Part shown: piece by piece, positions 3,416-58,822 of the stretch
Layout of the letters: each line of letters opens with the position of its first letter
Numbering within the stretch: position 1 is the first letter of the stretch
Assembly (NCBI GenBank): GCA_016219925.1
Contig: JACRJU010000010.1
Coordinates: 32,147 to 96,146, forward strand
Reading direction: 5' to 3'
Source: Candidatus Uhrbacteria bacterium
Lineage (GTDB): Bacteria; Patescibacteriota; Patescibacteriia; UBA9934; GWF2-40-263
DNA length: 64,000 bases
Made by a program: the position numbers and the translations under genes
The notes under the pieces: generated by a model
Database searches by the model: none
The model's input: the letters and a program-made list of their open reading frames with translations, nothing else
What the model was told of the DNA's origin: nothing

Positions 3416-4876
3416 ATGCAGGATTTTCGTGATACACTGCCGTTATCTATGCAAAAAGGCATTGTGGCGAGAAATTTCGCCGTGCAAGTATCTGGAAAAC
3501 TTCTCGCTGTTTTGGTTGGACTCATTTCAGTTGGTGTCCTGACACGCCACCTTGGAACAAATGGGTTTGGAGAATACACCACAGCGATCACGTTCCTTCA
3601 ATTGTTCGGGGTCGTGGTTGATTTTGGTCTGACCCTCACCATGGTCGTCATGATTTCAGAAGAGGGAGCGGATAATGAACGGATCATTGGAAACATTTTT
3701 GGTCTGCGCCTCTTGAGCGGGGCGCTGATTTTCAGTTTCGCTCCGCTTGCGGTGCTTTTGCTCCCGTGGTCCGCGCAGGTAAAGGACGCCGTACTGATCG
3801 GAAGCGTCGCGTATGTGCTTATGGGAGGAGCGACTCTGCTCGTCGGAGTCTTCCAGCGCTTTCAAGCGATGTGGCGGTCTGCACTGGCAGAAATGGTTAA
3901 CCGCATCGTACTGGTGATTGCCATCGTGATATTCGCGCAACTCAACTTAGGAGTGGTCTGGATGGTCGGAGCTTCGATGATTGCCAATGCGGTTTGGCTT
4001 TATGCCATGGTTCGACTGGCTCGCCCTTTCGTACGCATCCGTTTTTTGATGGATAGACATCTTTGGCAACAGGTGTGGTCTCGTTCTTGGCCGATTGCGG
4101 TCTCCATTTTTTTTAACCTGCTCTATCTCAAAGGGGACGTCCTCTTCCTTTCTTTGTATCGAAGCCAGACAGAAGTCGGTCTTTACGGAGTCACCTATCG
4201 CATCATCGACATGCTCACCGCCTTGCCGGTGATGTTCATGGGCATCCTTTTGCCTTTGGTTGTGAACACGTGGTCGGCTGGAAATCACGAAGAATTTCGC
4301 ACTCATGTGCGCCGTACATTTGATTTATTTATGATCGCCGCTATTCCGATTGTGATTGGAACACAGGTCGTGGCTGGACGGCTTATGCGACTGATCGCCG
4401 GGCCTGGATATGAAGCTTCTGGTGATATTTTGCGCTTGCTCATCTTCGCGGTCCTGGGTGTTTTTCTCGGCGCGCTATTCGGACATCTTGTGGTCGCCAT
4501 CAACAAACAAAAACCCATGGTGTGGGGATATGTGAGCGTCGCGGTGCTCACCGTAGCCGGCTACTTCCTTTTTATTCCCCCTTATGGCATGTGGGGTGCC
4601 GCTTGGATGACGCTTTTCTCTGAAGGTTTGATCGCAATCATCACGTTTGCGGTGGTCTATCACACGACCTCCGCCGTCCCACACTTGGGCGTGACACTCA
4701 AAGCCATTTTCGCTTCAGCCATCATGTATATCTTCCTGCAATTTCTCCCTACCCCATTTGTGCTTCTTGATCTTGCAGTGGCCGCCGCTCTTTACTTAAT
4801 CGTTATGCTTGTTATCAAAGGAATCAAGCTTGAAGAACTCCTCGCGCTAAGAGAAGCGCGCAATGCGATTGAATGA
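3416..4876 (+). CDS. Polysaccharide/oligosaccharide flippase (MOP/Wzx family)
   Basis: 486-aa polytopic membrane ORF with about 12-14 hydrophobic segments. The N-terminal [17 protein letters not shown] pattern matches this family. Confidence 0.6.
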
Positions 4877-6062
4877 TATGACCGCGATACTCCTTTTGAT
4901 CACCCTCGTCTTTGTCGTTCTGGCTTACAAACGGCTTCCCCTCGCCGTCCTTTTGGTGATAGCCCTTCTGCCGAGCTATCTGCTTCGTCTCACCCTTTTT
5001 GGGATCCCAACAACTTTGCTTGAACTCATGCTCGGCGTTGTTGTTGTGGTTTGGCTCGGACAAAATCGTCATCGGCTGAAAACGATCCTCGCACTTGAAA
5101 GACGTTGGGCGATTGCGATTGCTTTGGTGATTCTAGCGGCGACGGTTGGAGCCGTCGTTGCTCCGGATACCATCGGCGCTCTTGGCGTTTGGAAAGCGTA
5201 CTTCATCGAACCCGTCGCATTGTTTTATGTTCTTGTTGATTTGTGCCGAAAAAAAGAATTAGACAGCAGCCGCATCATCAACGCGCTTTTGCTTGGTGGC
5301 GCGATCATCGCCGCGCTGACCCTCGTGCAGTGGGTGACGAATCTCGGCATTCCGATCCCATGGGATTTCGAACGCCGCGCGACCAGCCTCTTTGATTATC
5401 CCAATGCTGTTGGTTTGTTTTTAGGTCCGATCGCGATCATCACTTTGTACAAAAAATCCACGCGCGCGCTTTTCCTGCTCTTTCTGATTGCCATTGGGCT
5501 TGCACAGTCCGAAGCGGCTCTTGGAGCGATGGCAATCACGCTTGTCGTGATGGGACTTGCCTCTGCCCATATTCGAAAAACAACGCTCGTATTATGTCTC
5601 GTGGTCGCAACTCTCCTTTTGGTTATACCCACCACCCGCACCTATCTGATCACCAAGGTTACTTTGCAAGACCCTTCAGAACAGGTACGCGTCAGTCAAT
5701 GGCAAGAAACAATCGCCTTTCTCAAAGATCACCCGTTTTTTGGAGCAGGCCTCTCGGGATATCCTAAAGCCCTCGTCCCCTATCATACCCACCTTCAGTA
5801 CGAAATTTTTCAGTATCCGCACAATATCTTTTTGAACATCTGGGTAGAACTCGGTCTTTTGGGACTCATCGCTTTTGTTTTTTTAACGGCAACGCTTCTG
5901 CGTTCTCTTCTTTCTTCTTTCTTCTTCCTTCTTCCTTTGCTCGAAATCCTCCTCCATGGCCTCGTTGACGTTCCGTATTTCAAAAATGATTTAGCCGTGC
6001 TCGTGTGGATTCTGATCGCTCTTGTGTATGTCGAATACACCAACGCAAAACACGCCTCATAA
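4863..6062 (+). CDS. O-antigen ligase/polymerase-like (Wzy_C family) membrane protein
   Basis: 399-aa polytopic ORF overlapping the flippase stop. It has a Wzy_C-like loop region ([23 protein letters not shown]). Confidence 0.55.
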
Positions 6063-7216: not shown

Positions 7217-8089
7217 ATGACGATTCGAAAAGCCATCATCCCTGTTGCTGGCATGGGCACGCGTTTTTTGCCTGCTGCCAAAGCCCAGCCAAAAGAAATG
7301 CTCCCCGTGGTCGATAAACCGATCATCCAGTATATCGTTGAAGAAGCGGTGCAAAGCGGCATCGAAGAAATCATCTTCGTCACCGCCATCGGTAAACATG
7401 CTATTGAAAACCATTTTGATCGAAACTTCGAATTGGAATACCGCCTTGAACAAAAAGGGAAACTCAAGGAACTTAAAGCCATATCGGAGATCGGCAGACT
7501 CGCCAAATTCGCCTTCGTGCGCCAATCCAAACCCCTTGGTGACGGCCATGCCGTATTAAGCGCCCTCCCCTTTCTCGATTTGCACGAACCGGTCGCGGTC
7601 CTTTTTGGCGATGACATTATCGAAGGCAAAACTCCGGCGCTCAAACAATTGATTGATGTCTATAATAAGTACGGAGATTCAGTCCTCGCGTTACAAAAAG
7701 TGCCAAAAAACATGGTGAACCAATTCGGGGTGGTGGATGGGAAAAAATTATCCAAAACAACGTGGGAGATCAGGGGCTTCGTAGAAAAACCCGACATCAA
7801 GGAAGCTCCAAGCGATTTAATCGCAATCGGACGCTATATCCTGACTCCAAACATTTACACGCTTCTGGAAAAACAAAAACCCGGCAAGGATGGTGAAATC
7901 CGTCTGGCTAACGCGTTTGAGACGCTCCTCAAAAATAACGGAGTCTTGTATGGATGCCACTTTGAAGGAACCTGGCATAACTGCGGCGATAAATTCGGAT
8001 TCGTCAAAGCGCAAATTGAACTGGGCCTTAAACATCCCGATGTTGGTCCGGCTCTCAAAAAATATTTCAAAACCATGAAACCCCTATGA
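7217..8089 (+). CDS. galU: UTP--glucose-1-phosphate uridylyltransferase
   Basis: N-terminal signature KAIIPVAGMGTRFLPAAKAQPKEMLPVVDKPIIQY, a VEKP motif, 290 aa. Confidence 0.9.
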   Translation: MTIRKAIIPVAGMGTRFLPAAKAQPKEMLPVVDKPIIQYIVEEAVQSGIEEIIFVTAIGKHAIENHFDRNFELEYRLEQKGKLKELKAISEIGRLAKFAFVRQSKPLGDGHAVLSALPFLDLHEPVAVLFGDDIIEGKTPALKQLIDVYNKYGDSVLALQKVPKNMVNQFGVVDGKKLSKTTWEIRGFVEKPDIKEAPSDLIAIGRYILTPNIYTLLEKQKPGKDGEIRLANAFETLLKNNGVLYGCHFEGTWHNCGDKFGFVKAQIELGLKHPDVGPALKKYFKTMKPL

Positions 8090-12356: not shown

Positions 12357-12410
12357 GAAAATAAACATCCCCTGACCGACTCCACGTGAGGTGGATATCG
12401 ACCAGGGGAT
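12357..12410 (-). terminator. Terminator-like hairpin closing high-GC cassette A
   Basis: Outer stem ATCCCCTG/CAGGGGAT and inner stem TCCAC/GTGGA (12367-12410). It lies 4 nt after the stop of the 309-aa gene and is followed on the minus strand by a T-rich run. Confidence 0.45.
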
Positions 12411-12414
12411 AGGA

Positions 12415-13344
12415 TCAGCGCTTCCACCCGTTAGTGGCGTGGGTGATGCGCCGATCAAGGCTCTCGACGCGGTCGAGTTCGACCCGGACCGCGTTGCCCC
12501 ACAGAGTCTGGGGCGGCAGGCCGGGGATCTCGACCAGACTGCCGGTCGGAGCCAGGTAGATGATCTCGATGCGGTCGCGTGGGCCGACCGCCGAGATATA
12601 GAGCTCGTCGTAGGCGGCCGGGGCGACCGCGCTGTACGGGGTGCGGTCCGGACGACCGTCCCCATCGAGATCGGCGTAGACCGTCTCGATCGAGCCATCC
12701 GCATTGCCGATCGGGATGGCAACCCCGTTGCGCTTCACGAGAACCCGCGAGAATTGGGGGTTTCGGTGGGTGTGCCAGCTGACCCCACTGGCAAGCCCGA
12801 AGACTTGCAAGTAGGGGCCAACCACCTCGAAGGTCGTGGCGGCGTATGCCCCTGGGGTCGGGATGACCCTGTAGGGCGCGCCACCGACCATCATCGTGGA
12901 CGGTGGTAGGCCTGCGGGCGGACGGTGGTAGGCCTGCGGCTCGGCTGGTTGAGCCTTGCCGTCCTTCGCCTTCCGATCGCGGAGCGTCCGAAGACGCGCC
13001 TTGATCTGCTGCCTGGCTGTGCCAGCGGCAGGCAGCTCCGGCTGCTTGGCGTCCGGCACTGCCTGCTGGGACGCGAGCTTGGCTTTGGTCGCCTCGAGCT
13101 CCTGACGGAGCCGATCGACTTCGGCCTTGAGCCCGCTCTCGCCGGCTTTGAGCCGCGCCTCCAGGATCTTCACGTTCTGATCCTGGATGCACAGCAGTTG
13201 CTTGAGGCGGGCACTCGAGTCGGTTCCGGCGTAGCGGGCCTCGCAGAATGCGACGGCCTGCTTCGCTTCCTTCGACTCTTCAGCGTGCAGGGTGGCGGGG
13301 ACGAACAGGAACAGGGCGGCCGCGATGGCCATTTCGAACTTCAT
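12415..13344 (-). CDS. High-GC cassette A, gene 2: secreted coiled-coil protein with a beta-rich C-terminal domain carrying a DxDxDG loop
   Basis: Signal peptide MKFEMAIAAALFLFVPATLHA-EE. Heptad-like region LEARLKAGESGLKAEVDRLRQELEATKAKL. Contains DLDGDGRPD. AAGGAGA Shine-Dalgarno 5 nt upstream. Codons are almost all G/C-ending. Confidence 0.6.
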   Translation of the reverse strand: MKFEMAIAAALFLFVPATLHAEESKEAKQAVAFCEARYAGTDSSARLKQLLCIQDQNVKILEARLKAGESGLKAEVDRLRQELEATKAKLASQQAVPDAKQPELPAAGTARQQIKARLRTLRDRKAKDGKAQPAEPQAYHRPPAGLPPSTMMVGGAPYRVIPTPGAYAATTFEVVGPYLQVFGLASGVSWHTHRNPQFSRVLVKRNGVAIPIGNADGSIETVYADLDGDGRPDRTPYSAVAPAAYDELYISAVGPRDRIEIIYLAPTGSLVEIPGLPPQTLWGNAVRVELDRVESLDRRITHATNGWKR

Positions 13345-13419
13345 GGATTTCTCCTTGTGGTCGGACGTGCCGACCGTCTTCGTCTTTCGAGACGGCCGGC
13401 ACGGACCACCCGAGCCGAC

Positions 13420-14043
13420 CTACTTGCGGTGAACTCGGAGGAGCTCGTTGAGGTCGCGGCGGTTGCACGCCGCTTCCTCTGCGGGGTTGGCGGGCGGGCG
13501 ACCACCAGGGCACTGGCTCGTGCTCGCGGGCGCGAGCGCTTGCGGAGGTGGCGGGCCGTAGTAACCCGGGGCGACCGCTTCACCGAGCGGCGGGAGGTAG
13601 CCTCTGGCTCCTGCCCGCCATCCAGCCTCGATCATGGTCGTCTCCTGGCTGGCTCCCGGATAGTAGACAGCCTGACCGTACGGCCCGTAGCCGCCGGCGG
13701 CGTAGGGGTAGGCCCCCATGCCGTACGGCCCGTAAGCGCCGTAGTAGCCCGTGTACCCGGAGGTCACCTGACCTCCGCGGGTGCTCACCTGCGTGGGCAC
13801 CCCCTTGTCAACCGACGCGCGGGCCGTTGCGGCCGCGCGCTCGGCCGCATCGCCGTCATGACGCGTACGCTCGAGCTGGTCGGCGGCGGCAAGGAGCGCT
13901 GCCGCTCCCCCGGTGGTGGCCAGATCCTGGTGGACCTGGACCGAACCGATGACCCGACCGCTTGCGTCGGTGAGGTCGCGCTTGAGCGCGACGCTCGCGC
14001 ATCCCGTGAGGGCGGCGAGCACGATGGCGAGGATGGTCTTCAT
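13420..14043 (-). CDS. High-GC cassette A, gene 1: lipoprotein with a Gly/Tyr/Pro-rich low-complexity region
   Basis: MKTILAIVLAALTGC lipobox. GGAG lies 6 nt before ATG 14043 (alternative ATG at 14055). Contains GYTGYYGAYGPYGMGAYPYAAGGYGPYG. Confidence 0.6.
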   Translation of the reverse strand: MKTILAIVLAALTGCASVALKRDLTDASGRVIGSVQVHQDLATTGGAAALLAAADQLERTRHDGDAAERAAATARASVDKGVPTQVSTRGGQVTSGYTGYYGAYGPYGMGAYPYAAGGYGPYGQAVYYPGASQETTMIEAGWRAGARGYLPPLGEAVAPGYYGPPPPQALAPASTSQCPGGRPPANPAEEAACNRRDLNELLRVHRK

Positions 14044-14125
14044 CTGCTTCTCCATGTCGACTCGCCTGCGGCTGCCGACTCAATTGCCCTGAAAAGGACG
14101 GTTTGTCCCAATTTGGGAACGTAGA

Positions 14126-15599: not shown

Positions 15600-17600
15600 C
15601 TACTTGCAGCCGAAGGCCTGACGACCTTCATAGCTAAGCGCCGCGCAGTCGACTCCGTTGGTGTGCGTGTGCGGCTTGGAAGCCGAACGCGCGCTGGACG
15701 AAGTCGGGGGCGTCGTGGCGAAGGGGTCCATCGTGTGGTGACCCACGAACCACGGAACGCTCACCGCGACCATGAGTGCGCAGAGGAAGACCGCGAGGTG
15801 GCCCACCAGGGGGTTACTCCCTTGAGTCACGTTCAGGATCGATCCTGACTGCACCCGTGTCTGTGCGAGCCGGCGCACGAGCCAGTACCCGGGCAGGTAC
15901 ACGAGCGTGAAGAGGACCGCGCTCGCAACCCACTGATGAGTCCCGAGGAAGCTGAGGCTTGCACCCCAGGCCGCGACAGTCGCGCCCCAGACGGCTTGCG
16001 GCCATCCGTGACGGATCATCCAGTCTGCGGCGATGATCCCGATCGTCACCAGCCACCCGTACTGCGCGCCCCGAAGAGCAAGCAGTTGGGCCTTGGCCGG
16101 CGCGCCCGCGACCTTGAAGCCCATCCCGATGCACACGCCGACGAAGGCGAGGCCCAGGATGACGACGCGTGCGCTGAGCGACACACCGACCTCCGGGATG
16201 AGGCCCAGAGCGATCAGGTACGCCGGCATCAGCATGAAGGTGAACCTCCAGCCGAATTCGGCGAGCCAATCGGCGGGCCACCCGAGCACACTGACAACCA
16301 GGGGGTGGAGCAGACGCTGCCAGATCCGCAGCGTAAAAAACATGATGATCAGCACCGTCGCGCAGATGATCGCGCGCAGGCTGTGGTACATGCTCGGGGC
16401 ACTGAAGAGGCTCGAGAGCATCCACCAGAACGCCGTGAGGAACATCACCACGGTCGCCAGGTTGAACACCACGATCCCGACCGCCGAGCCGTAGAGCAGG
16501 GCTTTGAGGGTCCCGCTCATGGCGCCGCGGTTGTGCCAGGCGCTCGAAGCGCCGCGCAGGGCCTTGTGCCAGAGCGTGAGCTCCGCACCCAAGGCCGTGT
16601 CGAACGCGGCGATGATGTCGTCGAGATCTTCGGGGTTGAACCGGTCCTCGGGGGTCGCACGCGGATTGTAGTACTCCGCGAGCGTCCTGAGAAACGGCAC
16701 GCCCTTCTTGTCGACGACGTCCTTGACGATGTCCTCGCGCAGGGCGTACTGCAGGGCCGTTCCCTGCCGCACGCTGCGGCTGATGAGCAGGAAGAAGCGC
16801 CGAACCTCGGGTCCGACCGCCTCCCACCACTCGGCGGGCTTCCTCAGAAGACCCTCGAGGATCTTGAGCTCTACGGCGCTGACGCGCTGGGTATCCCCCA
16901 TCTGCGCGATCGCTTCCGCGAGCTTCAGGACCTCGTGCGGGAAGGACTCGGCCGGCACACGCTCGGTGCGAGGCTGTTGGCCCTTGCCACCGCCGACCTG
17001 CTTGGTCGTGGCTTTGTGGGTGTCATCCCAGACGCTCTTGTAGAGCGCCCAGGTCGGATCCAGGATGACGGGCACCTGGTCGGCACCCACCCGAATCTTG
17101 CCGTCAGAGTCCCGGGCCGGAACGAAGATCTTACCCGGAACGAGCCGGCTGACAACAACCCAGTCAAGAGTCTGGTTGGCATCAGCGTCTGCGACGCCGG
17201 GGTCGGAGCGGGCCGCGTCGACCTCGCGATCGATCTGGCTCGCGGCATCCGCGTACCCGGTGAACACGCCCAACAGGGCGTGTGGGCCAACCTCCTTGAG
17301 GAGGAGCTTGGCCTCGCGAACGACCGGACGGGTGTCGCCCGGAAGAATCCGCTCGACGAAGTCGCTCTTCTTGAGCAAGGCCGCGACGGCCGAGCCCGCG
17401 AGTGGGAGGGTGAACCCGGGCATGGTGCGCGCCAGGGCCATGACCGGCCCGGCCGCTCCGAAGATGCCCTTGAGCGACCGCTTGGCGATCGCCTTGCCGG
17501 ACTCTCCAGCACCCGCACCCTCGGTGAGCTCGCGCTCGAGGTGCTGGTGCACGGCCTGTTCGGCGGCCTCTTCGGCCATCAATCGAAGAAACTCGTTCAT
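15600..17600 (-). CDS. High-GC cassette B: 666-aa protein with a soluble N-terminal half (about 350 aa) and a polytopic C-terminal half (roughly 8-10 hydrophobic segments); function unknown
   Basis: AGGAG lies 6 nt before ATG 17600. Strong G/C-ending codon bias. Five long shadow ORFs overlap it, as expected from stop-codon depletion. The C-terminal tail has two Cys (VDCAALSYEGRQAFGCK). Confidence 0.6.
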   Translation of the reverse strand: MNEFLRLMAEEAAEQAVHQHLERELTEGAGAGESGKAIAKRSLKGIFGAAGPVMALARTMPGFTLPLAGSAVAALLKKSDFVERILPGDTRPVVREAKLLLKEVGPHALLGVFTGYADAASQIDREVDAARSDPGVADADANQTLDWVVVSRLVPGKIFVPARDSDGKIRVGADQVPVILDPTWALYKSVWDDTHKATTKQVGGGKGQQPRTERVPAESFPHEVLKLAEAIAQMGDTQRVSAVELKILEGLLRKPAEWWEAVGPEVRRFFLLISRSVRQGTALQYALREDIVKDVVDKKGVPFLRTLAEYYNPRATPEDRFNPEDLDDIIAAFDTALGAELTLWHKALRGASSAWHNRGAMSGTLKALLYGSAVGIVVFNLATVVMFLTAFWWMLSSLFSAPSMYHSLRAIICATVLIIMFFTLRIWQRLLHPLVVSVLGWPADWLAEFGWRFTFMLMPAYLIALGLIPEVGVSLSARVVILGLAFVGVCIGMGFKVAGAPAKAQLLALRGAQYGWLVTIGIIAADWMIRHGWPQAVWGATVAAWGASLSFLGTHQWVASAVLFTLVYLPGYWLVRRLAQTRVQSGSILNVTQGSNPLVGHLAVFLCALMVAVSVPWFVGHHTMDPFATTPPTSSSARSASKPHTHTNGVDCAALSYEGRQAFGCK

Positions 17601-17704
17601 CTCTATCTCCTGTGCGGCTCTTGGCCGCGCAATGGGTTTGGAACACGTGAAAAGGGCGAAAAAAACCTTTTCTCCAATGCGCGTTGCCGCACACAGAAGG
17701 GACT

Positions 17705-28976: not shown

Positions 28977-29846
28977 TTATTTAAACTTTCTCATACCGAA
29001 CAATCCCTGCGGACGAAGAAGGAGGAAAAAGAATAAGAGGACAAACGCCATGGAATTTTTCCATCCAGCGCCGAAGAACCAAACAGCAATCTGTTCGAAT
29101 AGTCCGACGATGAATGCTCCAAAAATCGCGCCCCCGATTGAGCCAACGCCGCCAATAACCATCGCGGTGAAACCTTTAATAGCGAGGTACACCCCCATGT
29201 TGGGATCCAAATTGAACTCCAGACCAATCAAAATGCCAGCGATTGCTCCGAGTAAAGAACCAACCAAAAAAGAGAGTCTTCGAATGTCGCGCGTTTTAAT
29301 CCCCATGACCTCCGCCACTTCTTCGTTATCCGCTGTGGCGCGCATCGCCTTGCCAAATTTCGTTTTCTTGACGATGAAAGAAAGGGTAAGAAGGAGCAGG
29401 GTGGAAACGATGATCAAAATAATCTGCATTAGCGTAATGTTGAGATCAAAAAAACGATACACTTCTGTTTGCACGCTGAACGCTTTGAGGCTCGATCCGA
29501 ACAAAAGAAGAACCAAAGCGTTGCCGATCATCAAAAGAGCAATGGTTGAGATGAGATACGCCATCCGTTTGGCTTTGCGTTTACGCTGGGTCTCATAAAC
29601 AAGTTCGTTCATGATAAGACCTGTAGCCACAGACACAACAATGGCGCACACCGCTGCGAGCGCTGGGCTGAACCCCAGAACCACCCAAACATAATGAAAC
29701 ACATACCCCCCAAGTAAAATCACCACACCATGGGCCAAATGAAAAATCCGGCTTGTCGCGTAGATGAATGTGAGGCCAGAAGCCACCAAGGCATAAACCG
29801 AACCGGCGATAATCGCGTTGATAATCAGCTGAAGAACAATCTGCAT
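28977..29846 (-). CDS. livH: Branched-chain amino acid ABC transporter permease
   Basis: Start at ATG 29846 (MQIVLQLIINAIIAGSVYAL), typical of the LivH N-terminus. Confidence 0.7.
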   Translation of the reverse strand: MQIVLQLIINAIIAGSVYALVASGLTFIYATSRIFHLAHGVVILLGGYVFHYVWVVLGFSPALAAVCAIVVSVATGLIMNELVYETQRKRKAKRMAYLISTIALLMIGNALVLLLFGSSLKAFSVQTEVYRFFDLNITLMQIILIIVSTLLLLTLSFIVKKTKFGKAMRATADNEEVAEVMGIKTRDIRRLSFLVGSLLGAIAGILIGLEFNLDPNMGVYLAIKGFTAMVIGGVGSIGGAIFGAFIVGLFEQIAVWFFGAGWKNSMAFVLLFFFLLLRPQGLFGMRKFK

Positions 29847-29908
29847 ACTTCGCTTATCATAGAGAAAATACAAAAGACCCGCAACAAGCGCGGGTCTTTT
29901 GTTTTGTT

Positions 29909-31105
29909 TTACGGCGTGTAGGCACCCAGATCAATTGTTTCGCCATTAACGAAATGTTTGATGTGGTAGCCGATAATCGGATCACCGTTTTGATCAAATG
30001 AAGTATCTCCGAGAGCTCCCGGCCAATTTTTTACTGCATAGAGCCAATCTCGAACCTTCAAAGGATCCACACCAGAAACAGGGAAGGCGTCCTTCAGCAT
30101 GTAAATCTGGTCATAAGCCGCAGCCATGGACGCTGGATATTCCGGAGCGTGGCCATAGGCGGCCTGAAAATTGTCGAGGAAACGCTTGGTCACTTCACGC
30201 GTAGAATCAAGTTCGGGTGTTGGCGAATAAATGTCTGCGTAGAGAGTTTTGTTTTTAGCAATAGTGTCTGAACCCAACATCACGTCTGAAACAAGAAGTT
30301 GGCCTTTAAATCCATTCTCTTTCAATTGTTTGAGAATCTGAATTCCGGCGGCAGGAGTCTGTGGAACGATATAGAGGACATCTGGAGCGGCTGTTGAAAT
30401 TTTGAGAACCTGCGTTCTAAAATCTGTGTCTCCGGTGTTGAACGTTTCGTCTGCCACCACTTCTGCGCCATATTCTGCAGCCGCGGCCGTAAACGACTTG
30501 CGCAAACCTTGCGCATAATCTGTCTGTTCAGAAATTACGGAGACTTTCTTTGTCCCAAGTTTCTTGATGCTGTACGAGGCGATCACGTCTCCAGCCATGG
30601 CATCAGATGGATAAGAGCGGAAAACGAGGTCTCCAGCCGTTGAAAGATCTGGGCTTGAGGCCGCCGCTGAAAACAACATCACTCCTGCTGGCTCCGTGAG
30701 AGCGGCGGCGGCAAGGGCGGCACCTGAACAGTCTCCACTCACAATGAATTTAATCTTATCAACCTCGATCAGTTTTTGGGCGGCTGATGAGCCGTCTTGT
30801 GGATTGCACTTCGAGTCCTCCCAAACGAGTTGCAATTGGTGACCATCAATTCCTCCAGCCGCGTTAATTTCATTGACGGCAAGCATCGTGGCGTTCTGAA
30901 GCGGAATACCATAAACGGCACCATCTCCAGTAAGAGGATCCATCGCTCCAAGAACGATCGGGCCCTCTGGAATTGTGGCTTGAGCTGTGGGTTGGGCCTG
31001 CTCCTCTGGAGCTTTGGGAGCTGGTTTTGAAAAGTACACGATGCCGAGCACCACGATCACGATCGCGATGACCCAAAGCAGTGCACTGCTGGATTTTCCA
31101 GACAT
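29909..31105 (-). CDS. Type-1 periplasmic amino-acid-binding protein (LivJ/K-like)
   Basis: N-terminal anchor. IVLGAMDPLTGDGAVYG...INAAGGIDGHQL pattern. Confidence 0.7.
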   Translation of the reverse strand: MSGKSSSALLWVIAIVIVVLGIVYFSKPAPKAPEEQAQPTAQATIPEGPIVLGAMDPLTGDGAVYGIPLQNATMLAVNEINAAGGIDGHQLQLVWEDSKCNPQDGSSAAQKLIEVDKIKFIVSGDCSGAALAAAALTEPAGVMLFSAAASSPDLSTAGDLVFRSYPSDAMAGDVIASYSIKKLGTKKVSVISEQTDYAQGLRKSFTAAAAEYGAEVVADETFNTGDTDFRTQVLKISTAAPDVLYIVPQTPAAGIQILKQLKENGFKGQLLVSDVMLGSDTIAKNKTLYADIYSPTPELDSTREVTKRFLDNFQAAYGHAPEYPASMAAAYDQIYMLKDAFPVSGVDPLKVRDWLYAVKNWPGALGDTSFDQNGDPIIGYHIKHFVNGETIDLGAYTP

Positions 31106-51796: not shown

Positions 51797-52720
51797 ATGA
51801 AATCTCTTCAAGCCTTTATCACGGATTTTTTGGAATATCTGGAAGTCGAGCGTGGTCGCAGTGCGCGGACGATTCGCAACTACGATTTTTATTTGCGCCG
51901 GTTTGCGCAGTTTGCTGGAAATATCCTTCCACCAAAGATTACGCGTGAAACCGTTCATCGCTATCGGTTATTTTTGAATCGTCTGGAACAAGGCCGTCAA
52001 GAAGTGACGCTCAAAAAAAGTACGCAGAATTATCATCTCATTGCCTTGCGCTCATTTTTGAAATATCTTTCGCGTCATGATGTTGCGAGCCTGCCCGCTG
52101 AACAGATCGAACTTGCCAAGCAGTCTAAGCGCACCGTGGATTTTCTCGAAGCTGATGAACTTGCCCGACTGTTGGCGATGCCGCAGAAAATCCATTCCGG
52201 TTTGATCGCCCTGCGTGACAAAGCGATTTTGGAGTTGTTGTTTTCCGCAGGTTTGCGCGTGAGCGAACTCACCGGACTCAAGATCGAGCAGATCAATCTC
52301 AAACGTGATGAGTTTACCGTGCGCGGCAAAGGCGACAAGCCGCGGCTGTGCTTTTTGTCTGATTCGGCAAAAGAAGCCATCAGAGGCTATCTTGAGAGAC
52401 GCCGCGATCCTTCACCGTTTTTGTTTGTTTCTCATGATCGGGCCAAAAGTGGTCGTAAAGACGGCGGACCACTCACCCCTCGCTCAGTTGAACGCTCGGT
52501 TGAACACTATGCGGTGAGCGCTGGCATCACAAAAAAAATTACTCCTCATACGCTTCGTCATACTTTCGCTACGGATTTACTCATGAGCGGCGCGGATATT
52601 CGTTCGGTGCAGTCGATGCTCGGGCATGAATCCATTACGACAACTCAGGTTTACACCCACATCACGAACAGCCAGATGAAGGAAGTTCACAAACGGTTTC
52701 ATGGGAAACAAAAGAGTTAG
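51797..52720 (+). CDS. Tyrosine recombinase, XerC/XerD family
   Basis: N-terminal SAM-like FLEYLEVERGRSARTIRNY. Catalytic HTLRHTFAT and GHESITTTQVYTH. Confidence 0.8.
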   Translation: MKSLQAFITDFLEYLEVERGRSARTIRNYDFYLRRFAQFAGNILPPKITRETVHRYRLFLNRLEQGRQEVTLKKSTQNYHLIALRSFLKYLSRHDVASLPAEQIELAKQSKRTVDFLEADELARLLAMPQKIHSGLIALRDKAILELLFSAGLRVSELTGLKIEQINLKRDEFTVRGKGDKPRLCFLSDSAKEAIRGYLERRRDPSPFLFVSHDRAKSGRKDGGPLTPRSVERSVEHYAVSAGITKKITPHTLRHTFATDLLMSGADIRSVQSMLGHESITTTQVYTHITNSQMKEVHKRFHGKQKS

Positions 52721-52784: not shown

Positions 52785-52858
52785 GAGCTCTTCATTCCTG
52801 CTGGAAGCGGTTGCTTTCAGAGCGCGGGGGTGGGGTAACAACTTACCGGAGGAGAGGC

Positions 52859-53194
52859 ATGATCGACCTGACAGCCGCTACCTTCGACGGGGTCGTCAAG
52901 AAACACCCCGTCATTCTCGTCGACTTCTGGGCGGCTTGGTGTGCACCTTGCCGCGCCATGATGCCGGTCATCAGTGGGCTCGCGGAGGCCATGCCCGATC
53001 TGGTGATCGGCAAGGTCGACATCGACCCCGAGCTCGAGTTGGCGACGCGCTTTAGGATCAGCGCGATCCCCACGCTCATGTTCATCGTCGAGGGACACGA
53101 GGTTGCGCGCCTCACTGGGGCCACGTCGTTGCCCAAGCTCATCGCTTGGGTGCGCGAGCACCAGGGCGCCGTGGAGACGAACCCGAACACGTAG
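52859..53194 (+). CDS. High-GC cassette C: thioredoxin-family protein with a WCAPC active site
   Basis: GGAGGAGAGG Shine-Dalgarno before ATG 52859. Contains VDFWAAWCAPCRAM and ISAIPTLM. G/C-ending codons, with overlapping shadow ORFs. Confidence 0.75.
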   Translation: MIDLTAATFDGVVKKHPVILVDFWAAWCAPCRAMMPVISGLAEAMPDLVIGKVDIDPELELATRFRISAIPTLMFIVEGHEVARLTGATSLPKLIAWVREHQGAVETNPNT

Positions 53195-53271
53195 CCGGAG
53201 CGACAGAGAGTCCCCCGGTCTTTTTATTTGTCTTGACGCTATGGTACGCTTTGCCTATCTTCATAACCTGT

Positions 53272-54187: not shown

Positions 54188-54245
54188 GGTCTCTTGGTAG
54201 GGTACAGATACGACCTGGCATAAGGCTCGGTCAAGGGAGGCCATC

Positions 54246-55226
54246 ATGGCACACGTGACCCATCGCGATCTGCTCTTTCCCATCGTCGTGAAGTTCTGGG
54301 GGGTCCGCGGATCCTTCCCGACCAGCGACGTCCGGATCGGCGGGCACACGACATGCCTGACGCTCCAGTTCCCCGACCAACTCATCATCTTCGACACGGG
54401 TTCGGGGATGATCGACCTTGGCAACCATCTGCTCGAGCCGGCGCTCGTGCCTGGAACGACCCTCAAAGACATCGAGGTGTTCACCAAGGTCTGGCTCGGC
54501 CAGACTGGCAACAAGCCCGAGGATCTCGGGCGCGCTCTGCAGGAGCGGTTCCAGGGCAAGAACGGCGGGGTCAACGCGACCGTGATCCACAGCCACGTCC
54601 ACAAGGATCACCTCGACGGGCTCACGGCGTTCAAGCCCGTGTTCCGTCCGGACACGGAGCTCACCTTCATCGGCTCGCGCCACAATGATCTGACGATCGA
54701 GCAGGTCATGGAGCGCTTCGTGTTCACCCCGCCGGTGTTTCCGGTGCCCTGGAAGGTCCTGGGGTCGAGGCGCACCATGCGCGAGATCGCTCCGTCGGGC
54801 GACACCTTCACGATCCCCTGCGCGGTCGGCGACGACATCCGTGTGCGGATGCTGCCGATGAACCACCCCAACCAAGCCTACGGGTACCGGTTCGAGTGGG
54901 GCGGTCGTGTGATCGCGGTCACGCTCGACCACGAGCACGGTCACGACTTCGACCGCAACGTCGTCGAGCTCGCGGACAACGCCGACCTGTGGATCACCGA
55001 GGCGCAGTACACCGATGCGCAGTACGCGCGGTGCAAGGGCTTCGGCCACATCAGCGAGACCGCGGCCGCCGCGCACGCCAAGGCGGCCAAGCCCCGGCTC
55101 GTCTACACGACCCACCACGATCCGGACGCCGGCTTCGACGATGTCCAGCAGATCGCGCGCACCATCCAGGAGTTCTCGGGCGTCGAAGCTCGGTACGCCT
55201 GGCAGGGTAGCGAGGTCCACGTCTGA
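54246..55226 (+). CDS. High-GC cassette D: MBL-fold metallo-hydrolase (Lactamase_B_2-like)
   Basis: GGAGG lies 5 nt before the ATG. HSHVHKDHLDG (HxHxDH), a downstream NHP, and TTHHDP. The antisense 329-aa ORF is repetitive low-complexity. Confidence 0.75.
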   Translation: MAHVTHRDLLFPIVVKFWGVRGSFPTSDVRIGGHTTCLTLQFPDQLIIFDTGSGMIDLGNHLLEPALVPGTTLKDIEVFTKVWLGQTGNKPEDLGRALQERFQGKNGGVNATVIHSHVHKDHLDGLTAFKPVFRPDTELTFIGSRHNDLTIEQVMERFVFTPPVFPVPWKVLGSRRTMREIAPSGDTFTIPCAVGDDIRVRMLPMNHPNQAYGYRFEWGGRVIAVTLDHEHGHDFDRNVVELADNADLWITEAQYTDAQYARCKGFGHISETAAAAHAKAAKPRLVYTTHHDPDAGFDDVQQIARTIQEFSGVEARYAWQGSEVHV

Positions 55227-56544: not shown

Positions 56545-57132
56545 ATGCGTACGCGCGTGATTATTGTTCATGGGTGGGGAGGTTTTCCAGAGGAAGGCTG
56601 GTTCCCTTGGCTGAAACAAACATTGGAACAGAAAGGATATACGGTTGAAGTTCCTCACATGCCTCATCCCGATTCTCCGGAAATTTTCCCGTGGGTTTCA
56701 ACACTCGCTCAAGTGGTTGGAGATATTGATGAGCACACGTTTTTTGTTGGGCATAGTATCGGCTGTCAGACGATTTTGCGTTTTTTGGAATCTCTGCCAG
56801 CGGGTCAGACGGCCGCAGGGGCAGTCTTTGTGGCGCCATGGCTTGCTCTTCAGCATTTAGGTGAAGAAGAAATGGAAATTGCCAAGCCATGGTTGCAGAC
56901 GCAGATTGATCTTGTGAAGGTCTTAGAGCATCTTCCAAAGAGCGCGGCGATTTTTTCTGACAATGATCCGTTTGTTTCTATTGAACAGCAGGATATTTTT
57001 CGTGATGAGCTTCATTCGGAAATTGTAATCGAACACAGGCTTGGACACATGAGCGGAGAGGATGGAGTGTCAGAGCTTCCTTCAGTTTTGGTTCATCTTA
57101 TTTCGTTATTTCCGTTGGAGTCGTCGTCTTGA
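56545..57132 (+). CDS. Alpha/beta hydrolase, YdeN/RBBP9-like serine hydrolase
   Basis: IIVHGWGG and the nucleophile elbow GHSIGC; 195 aa. Confidence 0.65.
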   Translation: MRTRVIIVHGWGGFPEEGWFPWLKQTLEQKGYTVEVPHMPHPDSPEIFPWVSTLAQVVGDIDEHTFFVGHSIGCQTILRFLESLPAGQTAAGAVFVAPWLALQHLGEEEMEIAKPWLQTQIDLVKVLEHLPKSAAIFSDNDPFVSIEQQDIFRDELHSEIVIEHRLGHMSGEDGVSELPSVLVHLISLFPLESSS

Positions 57133-57173: not shown

Positions 57174-57249
57174 GGCGGCCATGGTGAAACGGTTATCACA
57201 GCAGGTTGTGGTCCTGTCGTTACGGGTTCGATTCCCGTTGGCCGCCCCA
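57174..57249 (+). tRNA. tRNA-His (anticodon GTG) with encoded G-1 and CCA
   Basis: Hand fold: G-1, acceptor GCGGCCA/TGGCCGC, anticodon stem GCAGG/CCTGT with loop TTGTGGT, T arm ACGGG-TTCGATT-CCCGT, discriminator C. Confidence 0.85.
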
Positions 57250-57282
57250 CACAAAACCCCCGGCTTTTGCCTGGGGTTTTGT
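57249..57282 (+). terminator. Terminator hairpin after tRNA-His
   Basis: ACAAAACCCC / GGGGTTTTGT 10-bp stem. Confidence 0.55.
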
Positions 57283-57413
57283 GTGAGAGATAAGAATCGA
57301 ACCCGTAACGACGATCAACAACACGGGTACGATGCTTGAAGTGAGCGAGCGGAGAGGCCGAGCGGAGCTCGGACTATCCCGAGCGAGCGAGAGCAATATG
57401 GGCGCCAGCCCAT

Positions 57414-57434
57414 ATTCCCGTTGGCCGCCCCACA
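57414..57434 (+). repeat. Exact 21-nt direct repeat of the tRNA-His 3' end (T-loop to CCA plus 2 nt)
   Basis: ATTCCCGTTGGCCGCCCCACA occurs at 57231-57251 inside the tRNA and again at 57414-57434. The second copy is embedded in a 63-nt near-perfect palindrome at 57417-57479. Confidence 0.85.
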
Positions 57435-57522
57435 AAATAGACCCCAGCATGCTGGGGTCTATTTTGTTTGGCCAACGGGAGGTGAAGGGGGCATGTCTCT
57501 TTTCTCTTCATTCTATCCACAC

Positions 57523-57551
57523 TTGACACCATTTTTTCCTTCAGGCATACT
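57523..57551 (+). promoter_or_regulatory. Promoter of high-GC cassette E
   Basis: TTGACA (57523-57528), N17, CATACT (57546-57551). Confidence 0.5.
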
Positions 57552-57694
57552 TCTGCGGGTCTGCTTGTGAGGTGGCTATTTCAGCCAAAATTGCAGGCAT
57601 CCCGGCTGGCCGGATAGCCAGAGCCAGGCCAAACCGGATCGGTTTCCGGAAAGGCCAAACACCAGAAGCCCCAATGGGGCAACAGAGGCTACAG

Positions 57695-58732
57695 ATGAGG
57701 AACCTGTTTCAGATCGCGGTGGAGAATCTCGGCATCGAGAAGCGTCGCGTCGACATCAACGGCGTCACCGTCACGGCCATCAAGGGCTCGCCCGACAACA
57801 TCGCGCGGGTCATCGGCACCGCCCTGCGCGAGGAGCAGTACGACCTCAGCAACCTGATCGGCATGGGCATCTCCCGCGACGGGCAGATCCACCTGATCGG
57901 CTTCGACCCGGACAACGGCGGCAAGATCTCCAAGGCCGAGCTGCCCGAGAACGAGCTCGGGGGGCTCTACCTCGACGGCTTCGACTATGCGCACTTCGTC
58001 GGCTCGATGAAGGACGGCATCGTCGTCAGCGCGTTCGCCAAGGGCGTCCAGGCGACCCCGCAGAAGGGCCAGGCGCTGGACACCTTCGTCAAGGCCGTCT
58101 TCGCGGACGGCAACGTCATCGGCGCCGAGGACACCACCAACACGGTGCTGCTCATCGGCCGCAAGGGCGACCGCGTGCTGTTCGCGCTCGACACCGAGAA
58201 GCCGGACCTGTTCATGCAGGTGACGACGCCGCAGATGATCGGCGAGCCGCGCTACGCGCTGGTCGACCAGCAGACGCTGCTCATCGCCGAGGCCGGGACC
58301 GACCAGGTCTACGCCACCACCGCGCAGGAGCTCAAGACGCTCTTCGAGACCGGCGTGGAGCCGACCTGGCAGATGGCCGCGCTCAAGGGCCTCAGGATCG
58401 AGGACATCTCGCTCGGCATCGGCGACACCAACACCGTGATCGTCACCGCCATCCAGGGCCGCCAGCGCAAGCTGATCCCGACCTGGGCCGGCTGGAAGCC
58501 GACCAATGAGGGCGAGCAGAAGTTCCTCATGAACCCCAGCTACGCCGACGGCGTCGAGTCCGGCACGACCGCCCCGATCGTCCGCACCACGAGCAGCACC
58601 TACGTCGCGGTCGACGGCAACGGCGGCACCTTCCCGCGCCTCACCATCGGGACGCCCGAGGACATCAACCACCGCCTCGCGGTCATGGTCAAGAAGGCCG
58701 AGACCGGCGGCTACGCCAACCTGGCCCTGTAG
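57695..58732 (+). CDS. High-GC cassette E: 345-aa soluble protein with repeated beta-strand-like segments; function unknown
   Basis: AGAGG lies 6 nt before ATG 57695 (the listed ORF starts at GTG 57572, and ATG 57674 is also in frame). Codons are almost exclusively ATC, AAG, AAC, TTC, GAC and GAG. A long antisense shadow ORF is present. Confidence 0.55.
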   Translation: MRNLFQIAVENLGIEKRRVDINGVTVTAIKGSPDNIARVIGTALREEQYDLSNLIGMGISRDGQIHLIGFDPDNGGKISKAELPENELGGLYLDGFDYAHFVGSMKDGIVVSAFAKGVQATPQKGQALDTFVKAVFADGNVIGAEDTTNTVLLIGRKGDRVLFALDTEKPDLFMQVTTPQMIGEPRYALVDQQTLLIAEAGTDQVYATTAQELKTLFETGVEPTWQMAALKGLRIEDISLGIGDTNTVIVTAIQGRQRKLIPTWAGWKPTNEGEQKFLMNPSYADGVESGTTAPIVRTTSSTYVAVDGNGGTFPRLTIGTPEDINHRLAVMVKKAETGGYANLAL

Positions 58733-58776
58733 GCCGCCCCCCCACAACGTCAGCGCACACTCGCGCTGACACGCTC

Positions 58777-58822
58777 GCACCGCTTCTCGGAGCTCCTCCT
58801 CCAAGCGGTGCGTTTTTATTTT
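58777..58822 (+). terminator. Intrinsic terminator of cassette E
   Basis: GCACCGCTT / AAGCGGTGC stem followed by GTTTTTATTTT. Preceded by a second hairpin, GTCAGCGC/GCGCTGAC, at 58749-58770. Confidence 0.7.

Follow-up and report, generated by a model that had tools for sequence, protein, structure and literature searches.

Behind the tRNA-His gene of the Candidatus Uhrbacteria DNA analysed here (a stretch of 64,000 nucleotides, hereafter the window), a segment of ∼150 nt (57286-57434) is, in our best reading of the sequence, one member of a family of non-coding modules that lie directly behind Patescibacteria tRNA genes. The repeated tRNA-His tail at the end of this segment closes a maintained, probably RNA-level element and not the decaying scar of a lost mobile island. 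More specifically, and with a confidence that falls slightly short of even, we propose that the segment is a T-loop-targeted insertion module that may now be a conserved, + strand structured RNA, co-transcribed with tRNA-His and carrying a tRNA-like 3' tail. With somewhat greater reserve, we suggest that such modules could form an undescribed class of small non-coding elements at Patescibacteria tRNA 3' ends, in which inverted and direct copies of the module's own tRNA surround a structured core, and which would represent either a new tRNA-templated mobile element or a tRNA-tailed RNA family. Full-text literature searches returned no description of tRNA-linked modules of this kind; the closest paper deals with group I introns located in the anticodon loops of Patescibacteria tRNAs (PMC13011429).

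The window, whose DNA is also present in the Logan assembly SRR12113407, carries, in order, a Xer-like recombinase gene (51797-52720), several further genes, a tRNA-Arg gene on the - strand, a serine hydrolase gene (56545-57132), the tRNA-His gene, the module, a 345-aa high-GC ORF (57695-58732), and the genes for a TrmB-like regulator and PolA. As claimed in the initial annotation, which was made from the sequence alone, the 3' end of tRNA-His is present as two exact copies of the 21-mer ATTCCCGTTGGCCGCCCCACA (Table 1), where 100 shuffles gave an expected count of 0.00; no third copy was found in the 64 kb with up to three mismatches allowed. With mismatches, the direct repeat extends to 31 nt at 87% identity, and the interval between the two copies is 162 nt. 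Also confirmed were a hairpin after each copy, a 63-nt near-perfect palindrome at the second copy, with its arms CCCGTTGGCC/GGCCAACGGG, and, between the copies, a 9-bp hairpin (57395-57416) and a GC-rich repeat segment (57343-57351/57381-57389). An inverted piece of the T-arm exists as well, but its true site is 57294-57312 and not 57304-57320, a displacement of ∼10 nt.

Table 1. Features at the 3' side of tRNA-His in the window
Feature	Position	Strand	Basis
tRNA-His (GTG), G-1 at 57174 and encoded CCA	57174-57249 (gene 57175-57249)	+	ARAGORN; Rfam tRNA model, 61.3 bits
Direct repeat copy 1 (within the tRNA gene), from T-loop A58 to 2 nt past CCA	57231-57251	+	Repeat search, shuffles
Hairpin/terminator 1, 17-nt arms, 94% complementary	57248-57285	+	Repeat and terminator analysis, comparison with L007
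IR-L, inverted copy of tRNA 57216-57234, 19 nt, 100% complementary	57294-57312	+	Inverted-repeat search
Hairpin A, ATCGAACCCGT pairs with ACGGGTACGAT	57296-57333	+	MFE fold; alignments
Helix B, two GAGCGAGCG repeats antiparallel, closing a variable covarying hairpin	57341-57390	+	RNAalifold; covariation test
Hairpin C, AATATGGGC GCCA GCCCATATT, abuts the second copy	57395-57416	+	RNAalifold; covariation test
Direct repeat copy 2, tRNA-His 3' end, A58 to CCA plus 2 nt	57414-57434	+	Repeat search, shuffles
63-nt near-palindrome, terminator 2 (57427-57472) plus CCCGTTGGCC/GGCCAACGGG	57417-57479	.	Inverted-repeat search; read from sequence

The region from 57174 to 57500 folds at -174.7 kcal/mol, far stabler than its shuffles (z = -11.9). 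Because its loop GGCTTTTGCC is common to the window and contig L007, terminator 1 travels with the module. Terminator 2 has 23-nt arms (91% complementary) extended by CCCGTTGGCC at 57417-57426 and GGCCAACGGG at 57470-57479, the right arm of the 63-nt palindrome being a second inverted partial copy of the tRNA 3' end; judged from the comparisons of L017 with L054 and of L048 with L042 described below, it is probably the native tRNA-His terminator. IR-L corresponds to the variable loop, the T-stem 5' strand and the T-loop of the tRNA, and its core, GAACCCGTA, is found in every family member. The 3' strand of hairpin A resembles the T-stem 5' strand plus the T-loop, and in helix B the GAGCGAGCG repeats (57343-57351 and 57381-57389) are joined by G-C pairs with GA/GA internal loops between them. 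No promoter-like site was found between terminator 1 and the module, and there is no conserved ORF between the direct repeats, where the + frame stops after 14 codons in L007. In the Logan assembly of the same sample, one contig ends and the next begins inside a perfect 36-nt palindrome (57438-57461); a contig break at a palindrome is probably a de Bruijn graph artefact and not evidence of a junction. An assembly chimera was rejected, as the Logan contigs abut only at this palindrome and the high-GC ORF is contiguous with TrmB/PolA.

The module recurs behind tRNA-His in six other Patescibacteria contigs (L007, L017, L027, L031, L053, and L044), which, with L031 and L053 being the same sequence, gives six distinct family-1 sequences when the window is included. 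A scan of 185,579 species-representative genomes with the 3' 34 nt of the tRNA returned one locus, L007, and a metagenome scan with the 19-mer returned 50 loci, with full copies in L017, L027, L031/L053, and L044; looser variants of the module are present in L013, L020, L030/L048, and L061. A covariance model built from the six sequences detected only these copies in 402 kb, one per locus and one in the window. In each member, the tRNA is followed by a hairpin/terminator, a partly degenerate copy of the tRNA 3' half in inverted orientation, GGGTTCGAT, helix B, hairpin C, and a direct copy running from nt 57/58 to CCA. GGGTTCGAT is itself a direct copy of the T-stem 5' strand and the start of the T-loop, and it pairs with the inverted piece to give hairpin A. 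The inverted piece of L044 spans tRNA positions 49-76, including the complement of CCA, and in L031 and L061 the whole terminator falls within the repeat.

Contig L007 (CAYMBX010000047.1) has CPR-like genes and the same tRNA-Arg/hydrolase/tRNA-His neighbourhood as the window. It is labelled 'uncultured Gammaproteobacteria', yet the neighbourhood is of Uhrbacteria type, and it is probably mis-binned. Its layout consists of tRNA-His, a hairpin, an inverted T-arm piece, GAAGTGAGCGAGCGGA, a variable hairpin and GACTATCCCGAGCGA, followed by a hairpin whose arms differ but remain complementary, and then by the 19-mer and a second hairpin. The blocks GAAGTGAGCGAGCGGA and GACTATCCCGAGCGA are identical in the window and L007, whereas no alignment is possible for the tRNA promoter region or for either terminator stem, and the hydrolase is 59% identical. 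A neutral remnant would be unconstrained and would change at the rate of the surrounding intergenic DNA; here, the blocks are conserved and the flanks are not alignable. The initial annotation had taken the locus to fit decayed tandem insertions, a view that it regarded as incompatible with the same duplicated structure being present in related genomes without a downstream foreign gene. The duplicated structure is present in L007, L017, L027, L031, and L044, and conserved blocks and covarying helices across genomes whose hydrolase is only 59% identical contradict decay.

RNAalifold predicted the long helix B and hairpin C from the six sequences. In a covariation test of a trimmed 24-pair structure, which was taken from the same alignment of six distinct family-1 sequences, 88.7% of cells were paired and 15 of the 24 pairs had changed on both sides; none of 500 shuffles reached the observed values, and the covariation score was 0.52 compared with 0.13 or less when the partners were slid. 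Of the 17 pairs in helix B, 11 had changed on both sides, with 90% of cells paired; of the 7 pairs in hairpin C, 4 had done so. Covariation-backed helices, the generic mark of a structured RNA, are thus found both in family 1 (15 of 24 pairs, six sequences) and in the second core family described below (4 pairs). The + strand is favoured because the GA/GA loops, read on the other strand, would turn into mismatches between pyrimidines; G-U pairs outnumber A-C pairs by 8 to 2 in the family-1 helices. The closing helix formed by the inverted piece and the 3' copy has no strand preference, and its stability ranges from -33.1 kcal/mol in L044 and -20.8 kcal/mol in L017 to -6.4 kcal/mol in the window. 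In L044, the inverted piece provides G-1, the acceptor 5' strand and the T-stem 5' strand and, together with the 3' copy, forms a 17-bp minihelix; because the acceptor 5' partner is missing in the window, no minihelix, and hence no tRNA-like domain, forms there. In a search of Rfam 15, only tRNA models matched, the remainder being chance matches to terminator hairpins far below threshold, and tmRNA, YrlA, and Intron_gpI had no match in the module.

Comparison of filled and empty loci identifies the inserted part. Everything between the repeats of L017 is absent in the related contig L054, whose post-tRNA flank matches the L017 flank after the second copy (38/43 identity) and matches terminator 1 poorly; L042 and L048 stand in the same empty/filled relation (41/42). 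These pairs identify the module together with terminator 1 as the insert, and the second copy and the terminator behind it as the native end. L034, which is related to L027, retains terminator 1 along with the inverted piece but lacks the rest; its boundaries differ from those of the other pairs, a state that indicates a later deletion. Module-free tRNA-His genes identical to the tRNA-His of L031/L044 occur in L021, L026, L039, and L041. The closest syntenic relatives by TrmB identity, L059 (79%) and L063, are without the module, which is thus dispensable and patchy; an empty site matching the window's own flank was not found among the relatives. Overall, the geometry and the two precise empty loci, L054 and L042, point to an origin of the module by insertion or duplication at the T-loop. 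Of the proposal made in the initial annotation, the att-like geometry of a tRNA-gene insertion is supported, as are empty loci in these two pairs; its decay and the tandem insertion of the downstream high-GC cassette (cassette E) are not supported.

At least three core families were found, behind tRNA-His, -Arg, -Lys, -Pro, and -Gly. The family-2 core (GGGAAGGGGTCGGGAAACGG...) lies behind tRNA-Lys (L011), tRNA-Pro (L022 and L028), tRNA-Arg (L055 and L019), and tRNA-His (L020), and each of these modules starts with a degenerate inverted copy, and ends with the last 18-22 nt, of its own tRNA. Both family-2 hairpins covary, with four supported pairs. Family-2 modules are internal to tRNA operons and have no terminator ahead of them, and so must be co-transcribed. 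The third type, composed of two hairpins and AT-rich loops, is found behind tRNA-Gly in L012/L038 and also in L057; after tRNA-Gly it terminates in the 3' end of its own tRNA. Similarly, the tRNA-His of L061 has a different 3' end (CCCGGTGGTCGCCCCA), with which the copy and the inverted T-loop piece agree, ATTCCCGGTGGTCGCCCCA being alike in tRNA and copy. The inverted piece of the modules also fits the lineage-specific variable loop. Since the copies match their own tRNA across lineages, the repeats are always derived from, or kept identical to, the local tRNA. The left boundary of the direct copy varies from nt 57 to nt 60, and in L022 homology runs on through the T-loop.

The initial annotation regarded cassette E as a tandem insertion. 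Only two relatives of its 345-aa ORF (HZA85_01900) were detected: P0122 in L058, with 43% identity and another gene context, and a homologue at 3192-4244 of L061, with 28% identity (E 2e-31). The order in L061, an Uhrbacteria contig, is tRNA-His, module, ORF, DUF3307, TrmB, PolA, so that the ORF occupies the same place as in the window. A promoter (TTGACA, 17 nt, CATACT) and a 5' UTR hairpin motif, GCCAAACCGNANNGGTTTYCGG, are conserved in all three genomes (window 57510-57700, L061 3060-3200, L058 2080-2235), in each of which the gene is GC-rich. Given its own promoter and its syntenic position in L061, the ORF is a GC-rich, fast-evolving gene and not a second insertion at an att site. A candidate third att copy ending cassette E (58725-58748) was rejected, because its three edits are at chance level (0-3 such matches per shuffled window) and it is internal to the cassette and common to L058. 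The nearest tyrosine recombinase is the Xer-like gene, 4.5 kb upstream and outside the repeats. Its protein scores best against XerC, XerD, and XerA models and is 68% identical to the product of the gene directly upstream of tRNA-Arg/tRNA-His in L054, and the gene is syntenic in L059 and L061. On the question of phage or XerC/D type raised in the initial annotation, the protein thus scores as XerC/XerD/XerA type, and its gene is a syntenic orthologue.

The explanation offered by the initial annotation, in which a tyrosine-integrase island or prophage in tRNA-His was deleted to a neutral scar of ∼160 bp and cassette E was a second tandem insertion, now appears very improbable. An intact tRNA gene with a displaced 3' fragment, identity starting in the T-loop, does agree with the definition of an island used by Islander (PMC4383910), and orphan 19-mers and split tRNA genes are found in L016, L037, L057, and L048. 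However, the repeats enclose neither integrase nor cargo, the remnant shows conservation and covariation across genera that a neutral scar would not show, the copy follows the changes of the tRNA in other lineages, and cassette E is syntenic in L061 with its own promoter, the third copy being at chance level. Conservation, covariation and tracking of the local tRNA exclude a neutral decaying att scar, and we consider the classical island-scar model to be largely refuted by the conservation data. Somewhat less improbable, though still doubtful, is a cis-acting device of tRNA-His, that is, an extended terminator or 3'-processing structure produced by template-switch (quasi-palindrome) duplications, with neither an independent RNA nor mobility. 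It would account for the inverted tRNA 3' copy kept right after the terminator in L030/L048 (TGGGGCGGCCAA), L034, and L021, which are without the full module, for the bidirectional-looking terminators behind both repeats of the window and for the inclusion of the whole terminator in the repeats of L031 and L061, but it leaves unexplained the conserved non-palindromic core blocks, the GA-loop helix, the homologous cores behind different tRNAs and the precise filled/empty pairs.

A more serious contender, which we nevertheless hold to be unlikely, is a non-autonomous mobile DNA module, active or recently so, with a folded single-stranded att site through which a host tyrosine recombinase, possibly the Xer-like protein, would target the tRNA T-loop. 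The att hairpin would comprise the tRNA 3' part (X), terminator 1 and the inverted copy, and insertion would leave X, hairpin, inverted X, core, X. The observed topology (direct copy, hairpin, inverted copy, core, direct copy) fits, the orientation of the site alternates four times in the window (57231, 57294, 57414, and 57470) and the empty sites are precise at the repeats. Mobility would also be consistent with one core family in different tRNA genes of otherwise similar clusters (His in L020, Lys in L011, Arg in L055, Pro in L022/L028), with different core families at the same tRNA-His site in syntenic genomes (window and L061) and with the Xer-type gene adjoining tRNA-Arg/tRNA-His in L027, L054, and L059. 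Against this, the module is present once in the window and once per locus in the 402 kb searched, the divergence of the cores is graded according to host and tRNA type and near-identical copies are not seen, motif scans of 2.9 million viral contigs gave no match, and the Xer gene is a conserved syntenic orthologue of housekeeping type. Moreover, if the module moved to another tRNA species, the outcome would be a hybrid tRNA without function, unless both repeats were made anew from the target, and we know of no recombinase that does so.

We return to the reading of an inserted module maintained as a structured RNA, which is not free of difficulties of its own. Terminator 1 resembles an efficient intrinsic terminator, so that read-through may be low; in L054, the 5' half of the core occurs with no copy of the tRNA; a recombination site of folded single-stranded DNA would give covarying hairpins just as well; the closing helix is weak in the window (-6.4 kcal/mol) and without strand preference; and the module is dispensable, being absent in L059 and L063. 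Under this reading, the module would have entered by recombination or duplication within the T-loop, the tRNA 3' end being duplicated on entry such that the tRNA-His gene stayed intact. Terminator 1 would have been brought by the module, and the native 3' end and native terminator would have been displaced downstream. At present, as conservation and covariation suggest, the module would yield a structured + strand RNA by read-through from the tRNA-His promoter, and the tRNA-His-like 3' tail could allow this RNA to be trimmed and stabilised like a tRNA.

Several other candidates were tried and rejected. A single fragment split by inversion (inversion of 57294-57417 would rebuild a 36-nt tRNA 3' half) fails because the inverted piece in L044 and L017 (positions 49-76) overlaps the direct copy, and the two are therefore not halves of one fragment. 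A reverse-transcription stop at m1A58 (an 18-nt rule) is incompatible with a left boundary that varies between nt 57 and 60 and with the homology through the T-loop in L022. A TnpB/Cas12-type guide RNA has no adjacent nuclease gene, the start of the guide would be base-paired and the filled locus would target itself. A T-box or leader of the downstream gene is countered by downstream genes that differ between loci, by a tRNA end that is sense and not antisense, and by terminator 2 and a separate promoter in between. The ORFs at 57332-57526 (+) and 57220-57450 (-) are not conserved, with indels and a stop in L007, which argues against a small protein. A dif site was dismissed, as the hairpin arms covary and are not conserved and the GC-skew turn is near 29-30 kb, and so was a phage or viral origin, the motif scans of viral contigs being empty.

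Repeats of tRNA 3' fragments are routinely taken as island boundaries. Like islands and prophages that target tRNA genes, the loci described here have an intact tRNA gene and a displaced direct 3' fragment running from the T-loop to or past CCA and, in the pairs L017/L054 and L048/L042, native flank beyond the fragment and a precise empty site. Unlike them, the module has only ∼160 nt between its repeats, without integrase or cargo, its interior is conserved and structured with an extra inverted tRNA piece, and the same core family is found behind different tRNA species with repeats matching each. Because such repeats here mark a conserved, structured 150-nt module, automated island callers would mislabel it.

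The attC sites of integrons and the attP sites of CTX-phage and IMEX are folded single-stranded recombination sites, attP being used by Xer recombinases. The module may be compared with them in that it is a non-coding, imperfect long hairpin of 60-140 nt with inverted arms and a variable covarying centre, in that its integrated topology is X, loop, inverted X, element, X, and in that the only nearby recombinase is of Xer/integron type. It differs in having a tRNA gene and not dif or attI as its target and in lacking a cassette array; no GTTRRRY/RYYYAAC core conserved across tRNA species was found, and the nearby Xer-like protein, unlike that of integrons, scores best as XerC/XerD and is without the integron integrase signature. 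MITE- and REPIN-type miniature elements are small and non-coding, and MITEs have element-specific terminal inverted repeats, multiple dispersed copies and a target duplication of fixed length. The module is likewise small, non-coding, bounded by inverted repeats and a direct duplication, and polymorphic for presence and absence. In contrast to MITEs, its inverted repeats are local tRNA copies, it is present as a single copy in 64 kb and its duplication varies from 18 to 53 nt; the dispersed copies, element-specific ends and fixed duplication of a MITE are thus not seen.

Known tRNA-linked RNAs include the tRNA-like domain of tmRNA, RNAs from tRNA 3' external transcribed spacers and tRNA-scaffolded RNAs. 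The predicted module RNA would resemble them in being co-transcribed with a tRNA or in ending in the acceptor 3' strand plus CCA; unlike tRNA-like RNAs, the window has no acceptor 5' partner and no minihelix (-6.4 kcal/mol), whereas L044 forms one. The group I introns of Patescibacteria tRNA genes are ribozymes, and they interrupt the gene within the anticodon loop, at position 35/36 (PMC13011429). They share with the module the phylum and the character of structured, non-coding insertions at tRNA genes without a homing endonuclease (PMC13011429). The module, however, lies behind an intact gene, is far smaller and has no Intron_gpI match. If the modules are RNAs, they would constitute a new class of tRNA-linked non-coding RNA in minimal genomes, where retained non-coding DNA is notable; if they are mobile, they would offer a route into essential single-copy tRNA genes without an element-encoded integrase.

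Further observations were made at related tRNA loci. In L054 (780-880), the 5' half of a family-1 core (ACGGGATGAGAACCCGT...GGTTCGATG...AAGTGAGCGAGAG) lies ∼135 nt after tRNA-His, behind a long hairpin, and ends in a hairpin and T-run without a tRNA 3' copy. The L059 locus has been rearranged: its tRNA-His (4896-4970), which has no module, is encoded on the strand opposite to that of Xer and TrmB. On the reverse strand of L031, a long tandem array of CGGGATGACAGTGTGGTGATGACCCTGC-like units, ∼370-860 nt beyond tRNA-His, lies between the module and the homologue of TrmB. At 8063-8305 of L020, a complete but different tRNA-Lys gene, flanked by the inverted repeats CCCTGCACCAGC / GCTTGGTGCAGGG, is inserted in the D-arm of a tRNA-Lys pseudogene; a second insertion lies near the anticodon stem, and fragments of tRNA-Arg genes are found nearby (7740-7990). 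The native tRNA-His of L057 is split (4460-4670): its first ∼14 nt (GGCGGCCATAGTGT) are directly followed by a complete tRNA-His of foreign type and a two-hairpin module, then by the native 3' 19 nt and a flank homologous to the post-tRNA-His flank of L012. In L048 (4724-4878) and also L030, tRNA-Arg(TCT) is followed 25 nt on by a partial tandem copy of ∼55 nt, from the anticodon arm to CCA, which sits immediately 5' of tRNA-His.

In the window itself, the cumulative GC skew has its minimum at ∼29000-30000 and rises thereafter, a turn that may correspond to an origin or terminus of replication. The window also contains five islands (12401-14100, 15601-17700, 52801-53200, 54201-55200, and 57601-58800) of 64-68% GC, compared with ∼49% GC for the genome. 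Most of them contain a single gene or a pair, and they include ORFs of secreted or lipoprotein-like type, a gene for a 666-aa membrane protein, one for a Lactamase_B_2 protein and the 345-aa ORFan; terminators bound the islands, and no flanking repeat common to them was seen.
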